64,000 nt of DNA from assembly GCA_963798215.1 (NCBI GenBank), contig CAWCSP010000004.1:702159-766158 (forward strand). The letters are read 5' to 3'. The position numbers and the translations under genes were made by a program. Of this stretch, positions 50,271-59,633 are shown in pieces (position 1 is the stretch's first letter; each line of letters opens with the position of its first letter). Source of the DNA: an uncultured Acidobacteriota bacterium (GTDB lineage Bacteria; Acidobacteriota; Thermoanaerobaculia; UBA5066). A model generated the notes under the pieces. That model saw only the letters and a list, made by a program, of their open reading frames with translations, was not told where the DNA came from and made no database searches.

Positions 50271-51158
50271 TCATCCCGCGGCCCGCTCTTTCCGCACCAT
50301 CTCCAGGAATGCGTGGGCCGCCGGGCCGAAGTTGCCCGCGGCCCGGTAGACGAGGCGGAGGTCGCGCGGGCGGCGCAGCTCCGGCAGCGTCGAGGCCGCG
50401 AGGCGTCCGGACTCGAGCTCGGAGAGCGCCGTCCGGCGCGGGAGGAGCGCGACGCCCATCCCGCGCTCGACGGCGCGCTTGACGGCGTCGAGGCTCGGGA
50501 GCGAGACCTTGATGTTGAGCGGCGTCCCGCGCTCGGCGTACGTGTTGAGGACGCGCTCGCGCGCGGGCGAGCGGTCGCCGTGCGCGATGACGGTCTCGGC
50601 GCCGAACTCCTGCAGCGTCACGCGGACCCGTTTCGCGAACGGGTGCGAGGGATGGGAGAGGACGACGAGCTCGTCCGACGCGAGGACGACGGTCTTGAGC
50701 CCCTCCTCGGCCGGCACGAAGGCGACGATGCCGAAGTCGAGCGCGACCGCGAGGACCTCGGCTCCGAGAAGGCGCGACGGCGAACGCTTCACCTCGAACT
50801 CGACGCCGGGATGCGTCTCGCGGAAGCGTCCGATCAGCGGGAGGAGGACCTCCAGACCCGCCTCGTTCGCGCCGATCACGACGCGCCCGTGCCGGAGGTC
50901 GCGCAGCTCGCGCACGGCTCGCTCGGCCTCCTCCGTCACGGCGAGGACGCGCCGCGCGTGCTCGAGGAGGGTTTTCCCGGCCTCCGTGAGGCGCACGTCG
51001 TGCGTCGTCCGGTCGAAGAGGTCGGCCTTGAGCTCGTCCTCGAGACGGCGCACCGCCTGGCTCACGGCGGACTGCGTCCGGAACAGGCGCACGGCCGCCT
51101 TCGAGAAGCCGCGCTCCTCGGCGACGGCCAGGAAAACGCGCAGCCCGGCGACGTCCAT
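50271..51158 (-). CDS. LysR-family transcriptional regulator, divergent from the ilv-leu operon
   Basis: 295 aa from ATG 51158: MDVAGLRVFLAVAEERGFSKAAVRLFRTQSAVSQAVRRLE (LysR HTH) plus a LysR substrate-binding domain. Confidence 0.8.
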   Translation of the reverse strand: MDVAGLRVFLAVAEERGFSKAAVRLFRTQSAVSQAVRRLEDELKADLFDRTTHDVRLTEAGKTLLEHARRVLAVTEEAERAVRELRDLRHGRVVIGANEAGLEVLLPLIGRFRETHPGVEFEVKRSPSRLLGAEVLAVALDFGIVAFVPAEEGLKTVVLASDELVVLSHPSHPFAKRVRVTLQEFGAETVIAHGDRSPARERVLNTYAERGTPLNIKVSLPSLDAVKRAVERGMGVALLPRRTALSELESGRLAASTLPELRRPRDLRLVYRAAGNFGPAAHAFLEMVRKERAAG

Positions 51159-51186
51159 AAGTAATGCTAATAATAATAGAAAGACT

Positions 51187-51318
51187 ATGAGTTTGAAGAA
51201 TTCCTTCGAATGCGGTCCAATTCGCGCCGTGATGGTTCTCGCCCGCATCGCCGTTCCCGTCCTTCTGCTTTCGAAGGAAATTTCTCTCGTCCTTACGGAG
51301 AGACAGGCGGCGAGCTGA
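51187..51318 (+). CDS. putative ilv-leu operon leader peptide (43 aa, 15 Ile/Val/Leu)
   Basis: [45 protein letters not shown]-rich, uses rare att/gtt/ctt/ttg codons. Its stop lies 28 nt before a terminator hairpin. Confidence 0.4.
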
Positions 51319-51346
51319 CGGGAAACGAGAAACACATCAGCCAGCC

Positions 51347-51373
51347 GCCCCGCAGACGCGGGGCTTTTTTTTT
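51347..51373 (+). terminator. intrinsic terminator / attenuator hairpin (gccccgc-agac-gcggggc followed by T9) 30 nt upstream of ilvD
   Basis: 7-bp GC stem, 4-nt loop and 9 consecutive T, read directly from the sequence. A possible antiterminator pairing is ggcggc 51306-51311 with gccgcc 51344-51349. Confidence 0.55.
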
Positions 51374-51403
51374 GGACCGGATTTCGAGGAGGTCATCGGG
51401 AGC

Positions 51404-53116
51404 GTGAAGAGCGACGCGATCAAGAAAGGCCCGGCGCGGGCTCCCGCGCGCGCGATGCTGCGCGCGACCGGCCTGACGCCCGCCGATCTGGAGAAGCCGC
51501 TCGTGGCGGTCGTCCACCCGTGGACGGACCTCGGCCCGTGCAACTTCACGCTCCGCGCGCTCGCCGAGGAGGTCAAGGCCGGCGTCCGCGAGGCCGGGGG
51601 CACGCCCTTCGAGTTCGGGACGATCGCGATCTCCGACGGGATCTCGATGGGCACGGACGGGATGCGCGCCTCGCTCGTCTCGCGCGAGGTCATCGCGGAT
51701 TCCATCGAGCTGGCCGTTGCGGGCCACGCGCTCGACGCCGTGGTCGCCCTGTGCGGCTGCGACAAGACGATCCCGGGCGCCGCGATGGCGCTCGCGCGGC
51801 TGGACCTCCCGTCGGTCGCGCTCTACGGCGGCTCGATCGAGCCCGGGAAGGTTGCGGGGAAGGACGTCACGATCCAGGAGGTCTTCGAGGCGGTCGGCGC
51901 GCACGCGGCCGGGACGATCTCCGACGCGATGCTCTGCGACGTCGAGGCGGGCGCGTGCCCCGGCGCGGGAGCGTGCGGCGGGCAGTTCACGGCGAACACG
52001 ATGGCGCTGGCGCTGACGTTTCTCGGGCTCTCGCCGATGGGTGCGAACGACGTCCCGGCGACCGACCCCACGAAGGCGGGCGTGGCCCGCGCGGCGGGCC
52101 GCCTCGTGATGGAGCGTCTGAAGGACGGCCTGACGCCGTCGAAGATCCTGACGCGGGCCGCGTTCGAGAACGCGATCGCGTCCGTCGCCGCGGCAGGCGG
52201 CTCGACGAACGCCGTCCTCCACCTCCTCGCGATCGCGCGGGAAGCGGGCGTCCCGCTCTTCCTCGACGACTTCGACGCGATCTCGGCGCGGACGCCGCTC
52301 TTCGTCGACCTCAAGCCCGGCGGCCGCTTCACGGCGCCGGACCTCGCGCGCGCGGGCGGCTCGCGCCTCGTCGCGCGGCGCCTCGTGGAAGCGGGCCTCG
52401 TGAAGAACGCGAAGACGGTCACGGGCCGGACGCTCTTCGACGAGGCGAAGGACGCCGTCGAGACGCCGGGGCAGGAGGTCGTCCGCCCGGTCGCGAAGGC
52501 GCTCAAGCCGCACGGCGGGCTCGCGATCCTGCGGGGCACGCTCGCGCCCGAGGGCGCGGTCGTGAAGCTCGCGGGCCACGAGCGGATGCGCCACACCGGC
52601 CCCGCGCGCGTCTTCGACGGCGAGATCGCCGCGTTCGCGGCTGTCCAGAAGCGCGAGGTCAGGGCAGGCGACGTCGTCGTGATCCGCAACGAGGGGCCGA
52701 AGGGTGCGCCGGGAATGCCCGAGATGCTCGCCGTGACGGCGGCGCTCGTCGGGCAGGGTCTCGGCGAGTCGGTCGCCCTCGTGACGGACGGCCGCTTCTC
52801 CGGCGCCACGCACGGCTTCATGGTCGGCCACGTCTCGCCCGAGGCGGCGGCGGGCGGGCCGATCGCGTACGTGAAGGACGGCGACCCCGTGACGCTCGAC
52901 GTCGTCGCGCGCCGCCTCGACGTCGAGATCGGCGAGGACGACTTCGCCGCGCGCCGCCGGGCGTACCGCGCCCCGGCGCCGCGCGCGACGTCCGGCGCCC
53001 TCGCGAAGTACGCCCGCCTCGTCTCGTCCGCCTCCGAGGGCGCCGTGACGGGGACGTTCGCGGGGGTCGCGGCGTCCGATGCGGCGGTGACCGTTTCCGC
53101 GGGGAGGACCGCGTGA
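51404..53116 (+). CDS. ilvD: dihydroxy-acid dehydratase
   Basis: 570 aa from GTG start; ...CGCDKTIPG..., ...[19 protein letters not shown]... (Fe-S Cys), ...[22 protein letters not shown]... Confidence 0.95.
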
Positions 53117-54825
53117 CCGCACAGGCGAAGGCCCAGCCGCAGACCCGCACGAGCGCCGCGCGCGCCATGGCGGACGAGCTCGTTGCGCTCGGCGTGACCC
53201 ACATCTTCGGGCACCCGGGCGGCGCGGCCCTGCCGCTCTACGACGCGCTCCACGGATCGCCGATCCGGCACCTCCTCATGCGGCACGAGCAGGGCGCCGC
53301 GCACGCTGCGCAGGGGTACGCGCGCGCGACGGGCCGTCCCGGCGTCTGCCTCGCGACGTCCGGCCCGGGCGCGACGAACCTCGTGACCGGCCTGACGGAC
53401 GCGATGATGGACTCGACGCCCGTCGTCGCCCTGACGGCGCAGGTCGCCACGTCGCTCCTCGGCCGCGACGGCTTCCAGGAAGCCGACATCGTCGGGATGA
53501 CGCAGAACGTCACGAAGCACAACTGGCTCGTCCTCGACCCGGACGAGGTTCCCGGCACGATCCGCCACGCGTTCCGCGTCGCGGTCTCCGGCCGCCCCGG
53601 TCCGGTCCTCGTCGACGTGCCGCGCGACGTCCTGCAGGGCGAGACGTCGTGGGAAGGCCCAGACGCCGAGCCCGCGGAAATCCTGCGCCGCGCGGACGCC
53701 GTGTCGCTCCGCCGCGCCGCGTTCGCGATCTCGAACGCGCGCCGCCCGGTCCTGTACGTGGGCGGTGGCGTGATCTCGTCCGGGGCCTCGGCCGAGGTGC
53801 GGCGCCTCGCGTGCAAGGCGCGCATCCCCGTCACGACGACGCTCATGGGCAAGGGCGCCTTCCCCGAGACGGACGCGCTCTCGCTCGGGATGCTCGGGAT
53901 GCACGGCACCGCCTACGCGAACTGGGCGATGCACGACGCCGACCTCATCATCGCCCTCGGCGCGCGTTTTGACGACCGGATCACGGGCAAGCTCGCCACG
54001 TTCGCGCCACACGCGAAGGTCGTCCACCTCGACGTCGACCCCGTCGAGATCGGGAAAAACCGCAAGGCCGACTTCCCGCTGCACGGCGACGCGAAGACCG
54101 TCCTCCGGCAGCTCCTCCCGCTCGTCGGCGCCCCGCACACGAACGGCTGGCTCGAGAAGATCGCCGCGTGGAAGGCCGAGGCGCCGCTCGCCTACGAGCA
54201 GACGGGCGACGTCATCCTCCCGCAGTTCGCGATCGAGACGCTCTGGAAGATGACGCGGGACCGGCGCCCGATCGTCACGACGGACGTCGGCCAGCACCAG
54301 ATGTGGGCCGCGCAGTTCTGGAAGTGCGACGAGCCGAACACGTTCGTGACGTCCGGCGGCCTCGGGACGATGGGCTTCGGCCTGCCGGCCGCGATCGGCG
54401 TGCAGTGCGGGATGCCGGACCGCCTCGTGATCAACCTGAACGGCGACGGCAGCTTCCAGCAGACGATGCAGGCGATGGCGACGGCCGTCGAGGAGAAGCT
54501 CCCGATCAAGGTCGTCGTCCTCGACAACCAGAACCTCGGGATGGTCCGCCAGTGGCAGGACCTCTTCTACGAGCGCCGCTTCTTCGCGGTCGAGCTCCGG
54601 AACCCCGACTTCGCGAAGCTCGCCGAGGCGTTCGGGGCGGCCGCGTTCCGCGTGAGCCGTCCCGAGGAGCTCGTCCCGGCGTACGAGGCCGCGCTCGCCG
54701 TGAACGACCGCCCCGCGCTCGTCCACGTGCGGACGGACGGCAACGAGAACTGCTACCCCATGTGGCCCGCGGGCCAGTCCATCGATTCGATGGTGGTGTC
54801 GGACCCGCGGAAGAAGAAGAGCTGA
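53113..54825 (+). CDS. ilvB: acetolactate synthase large (catalytic) subunit
   Basis: 570 aa from GTG 53113 (GTGA overlap with ilvD); TPP motif ...[35 protein letters not shown]... Confidence 0.9.
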
Positions 54826-54835
54826 GGAGGCTGAG

Positions 54836-55120
54836 ATGCAAGAGACCTATGAAATCAAGGCGAAGGATGCTCCCGGTCTTCTGGCAAGGGTCGAATCACT
54901 CTTCAGGCGCCAGCGCGCGCCCATCCGGAGCTTTTTCTTCGAAGGGTGTGAAGGCGGTCCGGTCGCGAGGCTCGTTCTCGTCGCGGAAGCCGACGAGGAG
55001 CGCTCGAATCTCCTTCAGAAGCAGCTCTTGCGCCTCGAGGACGTGATCGAGGTCGTCCGGTCGCGCGACGCCGTCGCCTTCGCGCAGCCCGAATTCACCT
55101 TCGAAGAAAGAACAGCCTAG
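54836..55120 (+). CDS. ilvN: acetolactate synthase small regulatory subunit, short ACT-only form
   Basis: 94 aa. The ACT domain aligns with IlvH/IlvN residues 1-80, but the C-terminal domain is missing. The gene ends inside an AT-rich repeat-motif cluster. Confidence 0.55.
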   Translation: MQETYEIKAKDAPGLLARVESLFRRQRAPIRSFFFEGCEGGPVARLVLVAEADEERSNLLQKQLLRLEDVIEVVRSRDAVAFAQPEFTFEERTA

Positions 55121-55185
55121 AAGGTTGAGAGAAGGCCGCTCGCAGCGCGCCGGCGGCGCCCAGCCCCTTTCCACCTTCTAAGAAA
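55094..55185. repeat. cluster of three motif copies at the ilvN 3' end and ilvN-ilvC intergenic region (55094-55108 reverse; 55116-55128 forward, degenerate; 55173-55185 reverse) forming a stem-loop-capable inverted pair
   Basis: ttcaccttcgaagaa / cctagaaggttga / caccttctaagaa, read from the sequence. Confidence 0.5.
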
Positions 55186-55232
55186 AATAGCATCACCTGA
55201 GCCAAACCATCAACACGACGAGGATCGAAGAC

Positions 55233-56247
55233 ATGGCGACAATCTGGTACGACAAGGACGCCGACATCTCCCGCCTCAAGGGGCGGACGGTCGCGATCAT
55301 CGGTTACGGCAGCCAGGGGCACGCGCACGCCCTGAACCTCCGCGACAGCGGGGTCTCGGTCGTCGTGGGCCTCCACGCGACGTCGAAGTCCGCCGCGAAG
55401 GCGAAGGCCGAGGGGCTGACGGTCCTGCCGGTCGACGAGGCCGCGAAGCGCGCGGACGTCGTCATGATCCTGACGCCCGACACGGGCCAGAAGAAGCTCT
55501 GGGACGAGTCGATTGCGCCGCACATGAAGGCCGGCAAGACCGTCATGTTCGCGCACGGCTTCAACATCCGCTTCGGCCAGATCGTGCCCGCCGCACGACG
55601 TGGACGTGTCGATGGTCGCGCCGAAGTCGCCGGGCCACCGCGTCCGCGAGCTGTACGTGGAGGGCGCGGGCACGCCGGCGCTCCTCGCCGTCGAGCAGAA
55701 CGCGACCGGCCACGCGCGCGAGGACGCGCTGGCCTACGCGAAGGCGCTCGGGACGACGCGCGCCGGCGTCCTCGAGACGACGTTCGCCGAGGAGACGGAG
55801 ACGGACCTCTTCGGCGAGCAGGCCGTCCTCTGCGGCGGCACGTCCGCGCTCGTGAAGGCCGCGTTCCAGACGCTCGTCGACGCGGGCTACCAGCCGGAGG
55901 TCGCGTACTTCGAGTGCCTCCACGAGCTGAAGCTCATCGTCGATCTCATGTACCGCGGCGGTCTCAACTACATGCGTTACTCGATCAGCGACACGGCCGA
56001 GCACGGCGACTACACCGCGGGTCCGCGCATCGTGACGGACGCGACCCGGCGCGAGATGAAGAAGATCCTCGAGGAGATCCAGGAGGGCGTCTACGCCGAG
56101 AACTGGATCGCCGAGAACCGAGCGGGCCGCCCGAACTTCGAGGCGACGCGCGAGAAGGAGCGGACCCAGCTCCTCGAGACCGTCGGCGCGGAGCTGCGCG
56201 AGAAGATGCCGTTTCTCCATCCCGTCCGCATCGGGAAGGTGGCCTGA
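55233..56247 (+). CDS. ilvC: ketol-acid reductoisomerase; one frameshift in this sequence
   Basis: The N-terminal 118 aa ([36 protein letters not shown]...[12 protein letters not shown]) are in frame 0. The remainder ([22 protein letters not shown]...) is in ORF 55600..56247. The shift is at CCCG 55587-55590. Confidence 0.85.
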
Positions 56248-56248
56248 C

Positions 56249-57529
56249 ATGAGCGCGGAGGGCGACGTCCGGCACCGCATCGCGATCTTCGACACGACGC
56301 TCCGGGACGGCGAGCAGGCGCCGGGCTTCTCGATGCGCGAGGCCGAGAAGGTGCGTCTCGCCGTCAAGCTCGACGAGCTCGGCGTCGACATCCTCGAAGC
56401 CGGGTTCCCGGTCGCCTCGGAGGACGACTTCTCCGGCGTCCGCGCCGTCGCGAAGGCGGTCCGCCGGCCGGTCGTCGCGGCGCTCGCGCGCGCCGTGGAC
56501 GCGGACGTGGACCGCGCGCTCGAGGCCCTCGACGGGTGCGCCCGTCCGCGCCTCCACACGTTCATCGCGACGTCCGACCTCCACCTTTCGCACAAGCTCC
56601 ACATGTCGCGCGGCCAGGCGCTCGAGGCCGCGGCTCGCGCGGTCGCCCGCGCGCGCCGCCACGTCGACGACGTCGAGTTCTCGGCCGAGGACGCGACGCG
56701 CAGCGACGTCGGATACCTCTCGGCCGTCGTGGGGGCCGTGATCCAGGCGGGCGCGACGACCGTGAACCTGCCGGACACGGTTGGCTACTCGACGCCCGAC
56801 GAGATCTACAGGTTCTTCACCACGATCCGGGCGAGCGTCGCCGGCGCGGACCGCACGGTCTTCTCGGCGCACTGCCACAACGACCTCGGCCTCGCGGTCG
56901 CGAACAGCCTCGCGGCTCTGGAGGCCGGCTGCCGGCAGATCGAGTGCACGGTGAACGGAATCGGCGAGCGCGCGGGCAACGCGTCCCTCGAGGAGATCGT
57001 CATGACGCTCCGTGTGCGGCCCGACAAGCTGCCGTTCACGACCGGGATCGTCCCGGGCGAGATCTACGCGGCGAGCCAGCTCCTCACCGAGCTCACGGGC
57101 GAAGCCGTCCAGGCGAACAAGGCGATCGTCGGCCGCAACGCGTTCGCGCACGAGGCGGGCATCCACCAGGACGGCATCCTTAAGGACCGCCGCACGTACG
57201 AGATCATGCGTCCCGAGGACGTCGGCGTGCCGAGGACGACGATGGTCCTCGGCAAGCACTCCGGCCGCCACGCGCTCAAGGCCCGCTGCGAGGCGCTCGG
57301 GATCATCCCGGCCCGCCACGAGCTCGACGACCTCTACCGCCGGATGATCGCGCTCGCGGACCGGCAGAAGGTCGTGCACGACCGGGACCTCGTCTCGCTC
57401 TGGTCGGCGATGAAGCGCGCGCCCGCGGCGCGTCCCTCGCACCACGTCGTGCCGATCCGGCCGGCGGCGGCGCACCGAAAGGAGGACGCGCCCGCGGCCG
57501 AGGAAGCCGGCTACGGGTACGGAGTCTGA
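56249..57529 (+). CDS. leuA: 2-isopropylmalate synthase / citramalate synthase family, short form without the LeuA regulatory domain
   Basis: 426 aa; HMGL-like TIM barrel with ...[10 protein letters not shown]..., ...[16 protein letters not shown]..., ...HEAGIHQDG... Confidence 0.8.
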
Positions 57530-58654
57530 ATGGGGAAGCGCGCGCGCATCGCGGTCCTGCCGGGCGACGGCATCGGTCCGGAAGTGACGGCGGGAGCCGT
57601 CGCCGTCCTGAAGGCGGTCGAGGCGCGCTTCTCTCACACGTTCGTCCTCTCCGAGTGGCTCGTCGGCGCGCGCGCCCTGCGCGAGAAGGGGACGCCGCTG
57701 CCCGAGGACACGCTCGTCGCGTGCAAGGACGCGGACGCCGTTCTCATGGGCGCCGTCGGCGACCCGGCGTACGACCTGGCTCCCCGGGACCAGCGGCCCG
57801 AGTACGGCCTCCTCCAGTTGCGCAAGGCGCTCGGCGCCTACGCGAACATCCGGCCGGCGCGCCTCTACCGTGCGCTCGCGGACGCGGGCCCGCTCAAGCC
57901 CGAGGTCGCGCGCGGCCTCGACCTCGTCGTCGTGCGCGAGCTGACGGGAGGGCTTTACTTCGGGACGCCGCGGTCCGTCGACCTCGCGGCGGGGACGGCC
58001 GTGAACACGCTGCCGTACACGCGCATGGAGGTCGAACGCATCGCGGAGATGGCGTTCCGGCTCGCGGCGACGCGGCGGAACAAGGTGACGTCGGTCGACA
58101 AGTCGAACGTCCTCGAGACGTCGCAGCTCTGGCGCGCCGTCGTGACGGAGGTGGGAAAACGCCACCCGGACGTCACGCTCGAGCACCAGCTCGTGGACTC
58201 GTGCGCGATGAACCTCGTCCTTTTCCCGTCGGCGTTCGATGTGGTCGTGACCGAGAACCTCTTCGGCGACATCCTGTCCGACGAGTGTGGCGCGCTCGTC
58301 GGCTCGCTCGGGCTCCTGCCCTCGGCGAGCCTCGGCGACGGTCCCGGCCTCTTCGAGCCCGTGCACGGCTCGGCGCCGCAGATCGCGGGCCGCGACCTCG
58401 CGAACCCGATCGGCGCGATCGCGACGGCCGCAATGCTCCTCGGGGACGGGCTCGGCCTGCACGAGGAGGCGGCCGCGGTCCACCGGGCGATCGAGGCCGC
58501 GCTCGAGAAGGGCGCGCGCACGGCCGACCTCGCGCAGAAGAGCACGCGCGCCCTCGGGACGCGCGAGATGACACGGGCGATCGCCGACGAGATCGCCGCC
58601 GCAACGACGTCGATGGCGCCGGGCCGCGAAGCGGCCTCAGGGGCGCCGCAGTGA
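57530..58654 (+). CDS. leuB: 3-isopropylmalate dehydrogenase
   Basis: 374 aa; ...VDKSNVLETSQLWR..., ...NLFGDILSDE..., ...GSAPQIAGRDLANPIGAI...; ATG directly abuts the leuA stop. Confidence 0.9.
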   Translation: MGKRARIAVLPGDGIGPEVTAGAVAVLKAVEARFSHTFVLSEWLVGARALREKGTPLPEDTLVACKDADAVLMGAVGDPAYDLAPRDQRPEYGLLQLRKALGAYANIRPARLYRALADAGPLKPEVARGLDLVVVRELTGGLYFGTPRSVDLAAGTAVNTLPYTRMEVERIAEMAFRLAATRRNKVTSVDKSNVLETSQLWRAVVTEVGKRHPDVTLEHQLVDSCAMNLVLFPSAFDVVVTENLFGDILSDECGALVGSLGLLPSASLGDGPGLFEPVHGSAPQIAGRDLANPIGAIATAAMLLGDGLGLHEEAAAVHRAIEAALEKGARTADLAQKSTRALGTREMTRAIADEIAAATTSMAPGREAASGAPQ

Positions 58655-58658
58655 GGCT

Positions 58659-59633
58659 GTGATGGGAATGGAATCGAAGTGGATCTGGAAAGACGGCGAC
58701 CTCGTGCCTTACGAGGACGCGACGCTGCACTTCCTCACGCCCGGCCTTCACTACGGGATCGGCGTCTTCGAGGGAATCCGGTGCTACGCGACGAAGGCCG
58801 GCCCGGCGATCTTCCGGCTCCCGGAGCACATCCGGCGCCTGAGGCTCTCCGCGAAGGCCCTGGGCTTTGACGCGCTGCCGTTCTCCGAGGAGGAGCTCGT
58901 CGAGGCGACGAAAGAGACGGTCGCGAAGAACGGCTTCTCCGAGTGCTACATCCGCCCGATGATCTGGCTCGACGGCGGCGGCTGGAACCTGAACCTCGAC
59001 GGCGGCAAGCCGGCGATCGGGATCGCGGCGTGGGAGTGGAAGAACTACCTCGGCGAGGCGGCGCTCGAGAAGGGCGTGCGGGCGAACGTCTCGTCGTTCA
59101 CGCGCCACCACCCGAACGTCTCGATGACGAAGGCGAAGATCAGCGGCAACTACGTGAACAGCTTCCTCGCGAAAACGGAGTCCGTTCGGCTCGGCTTCGA
59201 CGAGGCGATCATGCTCGACCCGAACGGGTACGTTGCCGAGTGCACGGGCGCGAACCTCTTCGTCGTCAAGGACGGGCGCATCGTCACGACGCCGTCCGCT
59301 CCGATCCTCGAGGGGATCACGCGCGACACGCTCCTCGCCCTCGCGAAGGAGCTCGGCTACGAGGTCGTCGAGCAGGCGATCGCGCGCGACCAGCTCTACA
59401 TGGCCGACGAGGTCTTCGTCTGCGGGACGGCCGCCGAGTGCGTCGCACTCCGCGAGGTGGACTTCCGGACGATCGGGGCGGGCGTCACCGGACCGGTCAC
59501 GCGGGCGCTCCAGAAGGCGTACCACTCGGCGGTGCGCGGCGCGCATGCGCGCTCGAAGGAATGGTGCTCTCCGGTCCGCGAGGCGCGGCGGTACCCGGCT
59601 CCCGTCCGGCTCGTCCGCGCCCGGCGCCGCTGA
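58659..59633 (+). CDS. ilvE: branched-chain amino acid aminotransferase
   Basis: 324 aa; ...GLHYGIGVFEGIRCY..., ...SMTKAKISGNYVNS... (PLP Lys), ...EVFVCGTAAEC... Confidence 0.85.
   Translation: MMGMESKWIWKDGDLVPYEDATLHFLTPGLHYGIGVFEGIRCYATKAGPAIFRLPEHIRRLRLSAKALGFDALPFSEEELVEATKETVAKNGFSECYIRPMIWLDGGGWNLNLDGGKPAIGIAAWEWKNYLGEAALEKGVRANVSSFTRHHPNVSMTKAKISGNYVNSFLAKTESVRLGFDEAIMLDPNGYVAECTGANLFVVKDGRIVTTPSAPILEGITRDTLLALAKELGYEVVEQAIARDQLYMADEVFVCGTAAECVALREVDFRTIGAGVTGPVTRALQKAYHSAVRGAHARSKEWCSPVREARRYPAPVRLVRARRR

Follow-up and report, generated by a model that had tools for sequence, protein, structure and literature searches.

A stretch of 64,000 nucleotides from the genome of an uncultured Acidobacteriota bacterium of the class Thermoanaerobaculia (contig CAWCSP010000004.1, positions 702,159 to 766,158; hereafter the window, to which all coordinates refer unless a relative is named) carries an ilvD-ilvB-ilvN-ilvC-leuA-leuB-ilvE operon which, in our reading, is preceded by a ribosome-mediated leader-peptide transcription attenuator tuning the operon to the supply of charged isoleucine, valine and leucine tRNAs. 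We put the probability of this reading at about 0.78. The putative leader lies in the 245-nt gap separating the ATG (51158) of a minus-strand LysR-family gene from the GTG (51404) of ilvD. It combines a short open reading frame (ORF) rich in codons for branched-chain amino acids (BCAA), an intrinsic terminator and alternative RNA pairings. A preliminary description of this DNA had proposed an attenuator next to a divergent LysR gene, and all the features it listed were found exactly where it placed them. Ten related sequences and the alternative pairings support that proposal and argue for a real, conserved regulatory element, the start of whose ORF has to be corrected.

The relatives were obtained by a protein search with ilvD (74-95% identical, some named Thermoanaerobaculia by their source), and their contigs were fetched. 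Eight distinct relatives (the LysR-linked set, within L161-L172 plus L175) share the order LysR gene, gap of about 240 nt and ilvD-ilvB-ilvN-ilvC, and two more distant ones (L173 and L174) have leuCD, the leader and ilvD with no LysR gene. All ten Thermoanaerobaculia relatives carry the leader, with the ORF running to a stop codon just upstream of the terminator in nine of them; the frame is also open and BCAA-rich in L175, which was obtained later and checked separately.

The frame is open from an ATG at 51187 to the TGA at 51316-51318, with 15 Ile/Leu/Val among its 43 codons, and these 43 codons had at first been taken as the leader ORF. The ORF most likely begins at GTG 51229 and not at ATG 51187, which leaves a plus-strand ORF of 29 codons plus TGA (51229-51318) with 13 codons for Ile/Leu/Val. 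This GTG stands 7 nt after a putative -10 hexamer and is invariant across the eight LysR-linked relatives; in these sequences the start codon follows the -10 by 5-7 nt, and in L173 and L174 an ATG occurs 10 nt after it. Since the start codon adjoins the -10 and no Shine-Dalgarno sequence precedes the ORF in the window or in any relative, translation is likely to be leaderless, and the leader mRNA probably begins at or almost at the start codon.

The same attenuator could in principle act through the entire 43-codon ORF, transcribed from the -10-like TAATAG (51174-51179) and initiated at a leaderless ATG 51187. We consider this version unlikely. TAATAG ends 7 nt before the ATG, which is kept in frame in the window, L161, L164 and L175, but neither this hexamer nor its spacing is conserved, and the ATG itself is ATT in L165, L168 and L169 (raw sequences and alignment A1). 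In L163 two indels shift it out of frame and the ORF starting from it stops at GTGA; L173 and L174 lack a counterpart. Where the ATG is retained in frame, in four sequences, the 14 upstream codons have accumulated six nonsynonymous changes and one synonymous change, a pattern not expected of coding DNA, and this upstream part holds a -35 and a -10 with conserved hexamers around a variable 17-nt spacer. The longer frame is indeed open and BCAA-rich, as first noted, but its first 14 codons are best regarded as non-coding promoter DNA.

For the ORF starting at GTG 51229 the enrichment in regulatory codons is strong and frame-specific. Ile, Leu and Val take 13 of the 29 codons, against 21.6% in the proteins of the window, and 12 of the 28 internal ones, against a mean of 5.1 in dinucleotide shuffles, none of which (0/2000) reached 12. 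Over nine sequences (all except L175) the leader frame has 122 Ile/Leu/Val codons out of 289 (42%) and no stop, the other two frames having 10% and 4% of such codons and 10 and 8 stops; the leader frame of L175 is likewise open and BCAA-rich. The peptides vary in sequence and length (24-45 amino acids), as illustrated by those of L175 (TLSHRTLVLVVVLAGEIPLLLRRRNGAG), L165 (ISRVLVLIGIDLLVLRASGVQAG), L168 (NSRVLGLLVINVLVLETSGVQAG) and L173 (MLARTLSPASTLLSAVNVRRLVGLLGLLLVVIVDVLVLSGGVRAT), each read from the conserved start. Indels spare the reading frame: L163 has gained 36 nt, and leaders of different clades differ in length by 15 nt. Because the frame stays open and BCAA-rich while the peptide varies, it is the BCAA content and not the peptide that is conserved in the ten relatives, in line with the attenuator originally proposed. 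The insertion in the leader ORF of L163 (ORF at 2823-2948), which brings the peptide to 41 amino acids, resembles a partial duplication of a ...CCTTCGAAGGA(G/A)AT(C/T)TC... segment.

The regulatory codons are often rare ones. In ten genes of the window CTT and TTG account for 2.4% and 0.6% of Leu codons, GTT for 4.1% of Val codons and ATT for 1.7% of Ile codons, which agrees with an earlier remark on the unusual att, gtt, ctt and ttg codons of the leader. Codons used at less than 5% in the window genes make up six of the 12 internal BCAA codons of the leader (three CTT, two GTT and one ATT). Exact-sequence look-ups returned no database record for either the 43-amino-acid ORF or the window ilvD.

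A function of the ORF product as a small hydrophobic (membrane) peptide, with a terminator that merely ends a short transcript, is very improbable. The product has a hydrophobic composition and roughly the length of a transmembrane helix, and the gene caller annotated the versions of L173 and L174 as proteins of 44-45 amino acids. Such a function is at odds with the conservation of BCAA content alone, without that of sequence or length, and with the coincidence of the conserved C-terminal residues with an RNA antiterminator arm. In addition, ilvD always follows the ORF immediately and in the same orientation, the 30-nt gap holds no promoter of its own for ilvD, and the rare BCAA codons of the ORF speak against efficient expression.

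Behind the ORF, on the plus strand, stands a canonical intrinsic terminator (51347-51373) composed of GCCCCGC (51347-51353), the loop AGAC, GCGGGGC (51358-51364) and nine T residues (T9, 51365-51373). Its hairpin has a 7-bp G+C stem of -15 kcal/mol, and the terminator ends 30 nt before the GTG of ilvD. A consensus terminator scan recovered it, and both stem arms are invariant across all relatives (alignment A1). The T9 is the sole run of at least nine T residues in the 64-kb window, where only three T runs reach six, so the terminator is not a chance feature. An origin as the terminator of a convergent gene was ruled out, as the gene upstream is transcribed away from it, no gene of the plus strand terminates there, and the minus-strand hairpin is not followed by a T run.

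The terminator competes with a second helix. The pairing of GGCGGC (51306-51311) with GCCGCC (51344-51349), noticed in the preliminary description, is present and grows to arms of 13 nt with 11 of 13 positions paired. The 5' arm (region 2, GGCGGCGAGCTGA, 51306-51318) holds the stop codon TGA, and the 3' arm (region 3, TCAGCCAGCCGCC, 51337-51349) ends in the first three nucleotides of the terminator stem. Both arms are invariant in the window's clade, and the intervening 18-nt loop is free to vary. In L175 the two arms have changed together (GGGGCGGGCT with AGCCAGCCCC), so that GGCGGC:GCCGCC of the window corresponds to GGGGC:GCCCC with pairing kept, and the overlap with the terminator amounts to 5 nt; this concerted change supports the antiterminator helix as a selected feature of the clade. 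The L175 antiterminator persists even when the full terminator sequence is present.

In L165-L174 the last six or so codons of the ORF (GGGGTGC..., peptide SGVQAG or GGVRAT) form the antiterminator 5' arm and are complementary to GCACCCC in a longer terminator than that of the window's clade, which has 7 bp. The duplex between the 3' end of the ORF and the 5' arm of the terminator is more stable there than in random windows of the same locus (p <= 0.007); the same test gave p values of 0.011-0.20 in the window's clade. In an alignment of 11 sequences, which includes analogous leaders from other lineages, 81% of antiterminator cells are paired, compared with 36-52% in slid controls, and five pairs have changed on both sides; for the terminator the figures are 85% and 40-59%. 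Both helices show compensatory changes in the more distant relatives.

A third pairing would oppose the antiterminator. Region 1 (51230-51255, codons 1-9, core TCGCCGTT at 51248-51255) is the putative 5' arm of an anti-antiterminator. In the minimum free energy fold of the window 51230-51255 pairs with 51306-51339 and the terminator is formed. L161 and L164 retain the core helix 51248-51255:51306-51313, in which one pair has changed in a compensatory way (T51248:A51313 in the window vs C:G). The whole leader folds more stably than shuffled sequences (z = -3.2). In every sequence the stop codon falls within the 5' arm of the antiterminator or immediately behind it, and a ribosome completing the ORF would for that reason block antitermination.

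These elements suggest the following course of events. Transcription would start at about 51228-51229, as judged from the spacing to the putative promoter, and the mRNA would begin at or next to the GTG of the 29-codon ORF. With no ribosome on the leader, region 1 would pair with 51306-51339, the terminator (51347-51364 and T9) would form and transcription would stop before ilvD. When BCAA are scarce, a ribosome would stall early in the ORF (its first third to half) on the Val, Leu and Ile codons, many of them rare, and cover region 1; region 2 (51306-51318) could then pair with region 3 (51337-51349), occupying the base of the terminator stem and allowing read-through. When they are plentiful, the ribosome would reach the TGA (51316-51318) inside region 2 and prevent the antiterminator from forming, so that the terminator would fold.

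Mutually exclusive pairings had been foreseen, and they respond as expected to ribosome masks in silico. In these folds the transcript was cut just before the 3' arm of the terminator, a 29-nt ribosome footprint was masked at each codon and the paired (sequestered) fraction of the terminator 5' arm was scored; this score replaced an earlier one, the equilibrium probability of the complete terminator in the whole masked leader, whose values were noisy and in part distorted by A-U pairing to the T tract. In the window the sequestered fraction rises from 0.27 on the ribosome-free leader to 0.72-0.85 when codons 7-11 occupy the A site, and is 0.27-0.34 from codon 16 to the stop. The corresponding values for L175 are 0.37 without a ribosome, 0.85 at codons 1-22 and 0.32-0.44 near the stop. 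In L165-L174 they are 0.83-0.95 without a ribosome, 0.8-0.95 at the regulatory codons and 0.2-0.57 past the last Leu codon.

Several observations weigh against an attenuator of this kind. In the window only 3 nt are common to antiterminator and terminator, as against 5 nt in L175, and two structures have nearly equal energies there: the antiterminator together with a partial terminator of 4 bp (-25.9 kcal/mol), and the antiterminator reduced by 3 bp together with the full terminator (-26.3 kcal/mol). Equilibrium folds of the window always show the full terminator once its 3' arm is present, and the duplex test for the window's clade alone is not significant (p = 0.07). Judging from these energies, read-through may hinge on the kinetics of three base pairs next to the T tract, its range may be small, and regulation may be weaker in the window than in the relatives. 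Equilibrium folds of L163 and L164 do not favour the anti-antiterminator. In the putative -10, TCCAAT, position 2 is not the A that is usually essential. The absent Shine-Dalgarno sequence makes leaderless GUG initiation a necessity, and this rests in the present phylum on the prediction that leaderless genes are common, about 13% of genes in three Acidobacteria genomes (PMC3160421). Finally, the ilvB leader of Streptomyces coelicolor looks similar, and mutation of its regulatory codons did not have the effect expected for a classical attenuator (PMC1262725); because that leader ignored such mutations, evidence from sequence alone is not proof.

The same case lends some weight to the idea that the ORF is untranslated, with LysR controlling the promoter and the hairpin with its T9 serving as a constitutive partial terminator or as the target of an RNA-binding protein or small-molecule riboswitch. 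The missing Shine-Dalgarno sequence, the stability of the fold relative to shuffles and the weak antiterminator of the window would all be compatible with it. We nevertheless hold it to be quite improbable, as it cannot explain a stop-free frame with frame-specific Ile/Leu/Val enrichment across ten diverged sequences. Conservation is poor outside the ORF and the helix arms, no aptamer-like core is apparent, and the ORF and terminator are kept in L173 and L174 despite the lack of a LysR gene. Searches with Rfam covariance models returned no match at the gathering score, T-box and riboswitch models included, in the window or in 17 related loci; at permissive E-values the segment 51000-51600 gave chance-level matches only (E >= 0.77), driven by the terminator.

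The leader-peptide attenuator is preferred, and the DNA ahead of it is predicted to hold its promoter. The 28-nt spacer at 51159-51186 had been listed as an AT-rich element of the leader. Its length and composition are as described (21% G+C, against 70% for the window), but it is unlikely to be part of the transcript and belongs instead to what appears to be a divergent promoter/operator region (51159-51192), in which a CTAAT core is kept in the relatives. The predicted leader/operon promoter on the plus strand consists of a -35 TTGAAG (51193-51198), found at a fixed distance in all ten relatives, a 17-nt spacer and the -10 TCCAAT (51216-51221), a weak match to the consensus. Among the ten relatives the -35 reads TTGAAG, TTGACG, TTGACT or TTGACA and is followed by a spacer of 16-17 nt with variable sequence; the -10 of the LysR-linked ones is TCCAAT, TGCAAT or TTCAAT. 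The segment is read as a promoter because conserved hexamers flank a free spacer. In L173 (2735-2773) and L174 (2710-2748), without the LysR gene, a near-consensus promoter TTGACA-17-TAGGGT is found ahead of the leader ORF.

A poor -10 in the LysR-linked leaders fits dependence on an activator, without proving it, and the leader promoter is probably controlled by the divergent LysR-type regulator. Dual control, by the attenuator and by LysR, is probable. A candidate binding box of the LysR-type transcriptional regulator (LTTR) kind, CTAATAATAATAG (51167-51179), lies inside the AT-rich region; its T-N11-A form and its centre, about 56 nt upstream of the predicted transcription start, agree with the usual position of such boxes (about 55-80 nt upstream of the start of the target), though a motif of this kind is trivial in AT-rich DNA. 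On the minus strand (51158-51197) the LysR gene has a -35-like TTCAAA and a -10-like TATTAT (51175-51170) only about 11 nt before its ATG, so that this gene too seems nearly leaderless, and its -35 overlaps that of the leader promoter back to back.

Two inverted repeats that involve the promoter were set aside. A pairing of 51192-51220 with 51372-51400 over the ilvD ribosome-binding site would have its 5' arm upstream of the predicted transcription start, on the promoter hexamers and spacer; the repeat itself (51195-51220:51372-51397, 26 nt, 73% complementary) would cover the ilvD Shine-Dalgarno sequence and is not conserved across clades. The other (51201-51213:51267-51279, 13 nt, 92% complementary) links the promoter spacer to the ORF segment TTCGAAGGAA. 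It too would need RNA from upstream of the predicted start, and L175 keeps only its first arm and the L165 clade neither.

The ORF contains two further hairpins. The smaller, TCCTTC/GAAGGA (51260-51278), occurs in the window's own clade only. The other, TCTCTC/GAGAGA (51283-51303), surrounds the Leu-Val-Leu codons CTCGTCCTT (51286-51294) and may be a pause hairpin. Its arms differ by clade with pairing retained (TCTCTC/GAGAGA, CTCGTC/GACGAG or CTCG/CGAG). In alignment A1 CTCGTCCTT is conserved at the nucleotide level, synonymous positions included, with CTCG and CTT invariant; the exception is L161, with GTT for Val. Selection on the peptide would not explain such conservation, which could reflect a pause site or dependence on a specific tRNA.

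A bolder, composite proposal can be built on this, which we regard as doubtful when all its parts are taken together. The locus would be a two-layer sensor of a hitherto undescribed type, in which a weak, LysR-activated promoter reports on a pathway intermediate and fires straight into a leaderless GUG ORF, linking the initiation of transcription to ribosome loading at the very first nucleotide. CTCGTCCTT in its covarying hairpin would be a pause/stall site read by a rare tRNA-Leu(AAG/GAG). The pairing of the ORF 3' end with the terminator 5' arm, as seen ahead of ilvD in Acidobacteriota, 'Obscuribacterales', Vicinamibacterales and other groups, would define a single large attenuator family that no catalogue yet contains.

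The neighbouring genes correspond to what had been described. The operon (51404-59633, plus strand), of about nine kilobases and devoted to isoleucine, valine and leucine biosynthesis, has short intergenic gaps or overlapping genes; the names ilvD, ilvB, ilvN (short), ilvC, leuA, leuB and ilvE are all supported by NCBIfam, and the gene order is also present in relatives. A Shine-Dalgarno sequence GAGGAGG (51386-51392) was read 11 nt before the GTG of ilvD. The divergent gene (50271-51158, minus strand) encodes a generic LysR-type regulator according to NCBIfam, with generic LTTR matches over residues 1-291, and its orientation relative to ilvD is kept in the LysR-linked relatives. The protein reached no NCBIfam equivalog cut-off: it scored 83.5 bits with the IlvY model (cut-off 246) and obtained no IlvR equivalog score.

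Three genes of the operon depart from the expected form. The ilvC gene (55233-56250) is broken by a frameshift near 55586, where there is one extra base in comparison with L161 (ATCGTGCCCGCC vs ATCGT-CCCGCC), and positions 1-119 and 123-329 of the NCBIfam model fall in different frames; intact ilvC of the relatives encodes 337 amino acids. The frameshift is either a sequencing/assembly error or a sign of a pseudogene. The product of leuA (56249-57529) has only 426 amino acids and aligns with positions 4-384 of a 2-isopropylmalate synthase model of 516 positions; it apparently lacks the C-terminal domain for feedback regulation by leucine. The ilvN product is short as well (94 amino acids, ACT domain only).

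Similar arrangements were found beyond the close relatives. The matches listed in genome and metagenome contig scans provided 160 distant ilvD loci (ilvD identity of about 70% or less), useless for aligning the present leader. About 26 of them have a terminator 45-150 nt upstream of ilvD with a BCAA-rich short ORF before it, and two types recur. In the first the ORF 3' end is complementary to a terminator arm CCCCGCACC; it comprises L002, L003, L014, L016, L057 and L085, from 'Obscuribacterales' metagenome-assembled genomes (MAGs), a Wenzhouxiangella MAG and a metagenome contig. The last ORF codons complementary to an arm of the CCCCGCACC type reproduce the design of the Thermoanaerobaculia leaders, and L057 shows a matched one-base insertion in both arms. 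The second type, with the terminator GGCCATCATCC...GGATGATGGCC, occurs in Vicinamibacterales, Acidoferrum and soil metagenomes (L031, L047, L049, L054, L112, L123, L127 and L140-L151, all with the terminator 45-150 nt upstream of ilvD), and its ORFs end like ...VVIVGIGFVLVGGRTSG. Neither type is covered by Rfam, as searched with the 17 related loci. BCAA leader-peptide attenuators upstream of ilvD thus appear to be widespread in soil lineages.

The mechanism is a textbook one and the conceptual gain is small; on the other hand, no such element has so far been catalogued for the lineage. Gene regulation in Acidobacteriota has hardly been explored, and the analysis offers a concrete map of the elements that would regulate the main BCAA operon in an uncultured lineage of Thermoanaerobaculia. 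The results further suggest that leader peptides translated from leaderless mRNA occur outside the Actinobacteria too. A widespread occurrence would justify building covariance models, so that such regions are no longer left blank or annotated as 'hypothetical protein'.

Among known systems the enterobacterial attenuators of ilvGMEDA, ilvBN and leu (the classical four-region model; PMC1183508) resemble the present one in having a short Ile/Val/Leu-rich ORF, alternative 1:2, 2:3 and 3:4 hairpins and an intrinsic terminator, and in sensing several amino acids together through rare regulatory codons. The window leader differs from them in lacking any similarity in sequence or to their Rfam models and in preceding an operon that starts with ilvD and joins ilv and leu genes. 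In place of a Shine-Dalgarno sequence it has a GTG start right after the -10; its stop codon lies inside region 2 and not between regions 1 and 2, and its antiterminator overlaps the terminator by only 3 nt.

On the side of the regulator, the IlvR-PilvD system of Caulobacter crescentus and IlvY-PilvC of Escherichia coli (table in PMC11495319) have the same divergent LysR and ilv genes with overlapping back-to-back promoters, whereas the LysR protein of the window reaches no equivalog cut-off. For the IlvR and IlvY systems we found no description in the literature of a LysR regulator and a leader-peptide attenuator acting on one promoter.

The polycysteine upstream ORFs of mycobacteria (bioRxiv 10.1101/834739) are leaderless short ORFs that sense an amino acid for the downstream operon, and the ilvB1NC attenuator of Mycobacterium tuberculosis (PMC13236596) yields a short terminated leader transcript and has a leader peptide with BCAA codons. 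The mycobacterial cases were shown experimentally, the cysteine ORFs having no obvious intrinsic terminator, whereas the window leader has a canonical one and is known from its sequence only; it resembles none of the systems compared here in sequence or by model. In Corynebacterium glutamicum transcription begins 1 nt from the start codon of IlvL, the leader peptide of ilvBNC (Morbach et al. 2000, described in PMC11857589). That leader (PMC11857589; ilvB-II motif, PMC10272879) shares with the present one a high-G+C genomic setting, the lack of a ribosome-binding site, mixed Ile/Val/Leu codons and a three-hairpin logic of anti-antiterminator, antiterminator and terminator. It has a peptide of 15 amino acids and a leader region of 292 nt upstream of ilvB, in contrast to 29 amino acids and about 145 nt to the terminator upstream of ilvD in the window. 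It comes from another phylum, with no sequence similarity and no divergent LysR gene, and the leaderless start in the window is deduced from promoter spacing. By analogy of design the ilvBNC leader of C. glutamicum is nevertheless the nearest described analogue of the putative Thermoanaerobaculia attenuator, with M. tuberculosis ilvB1NC also close.

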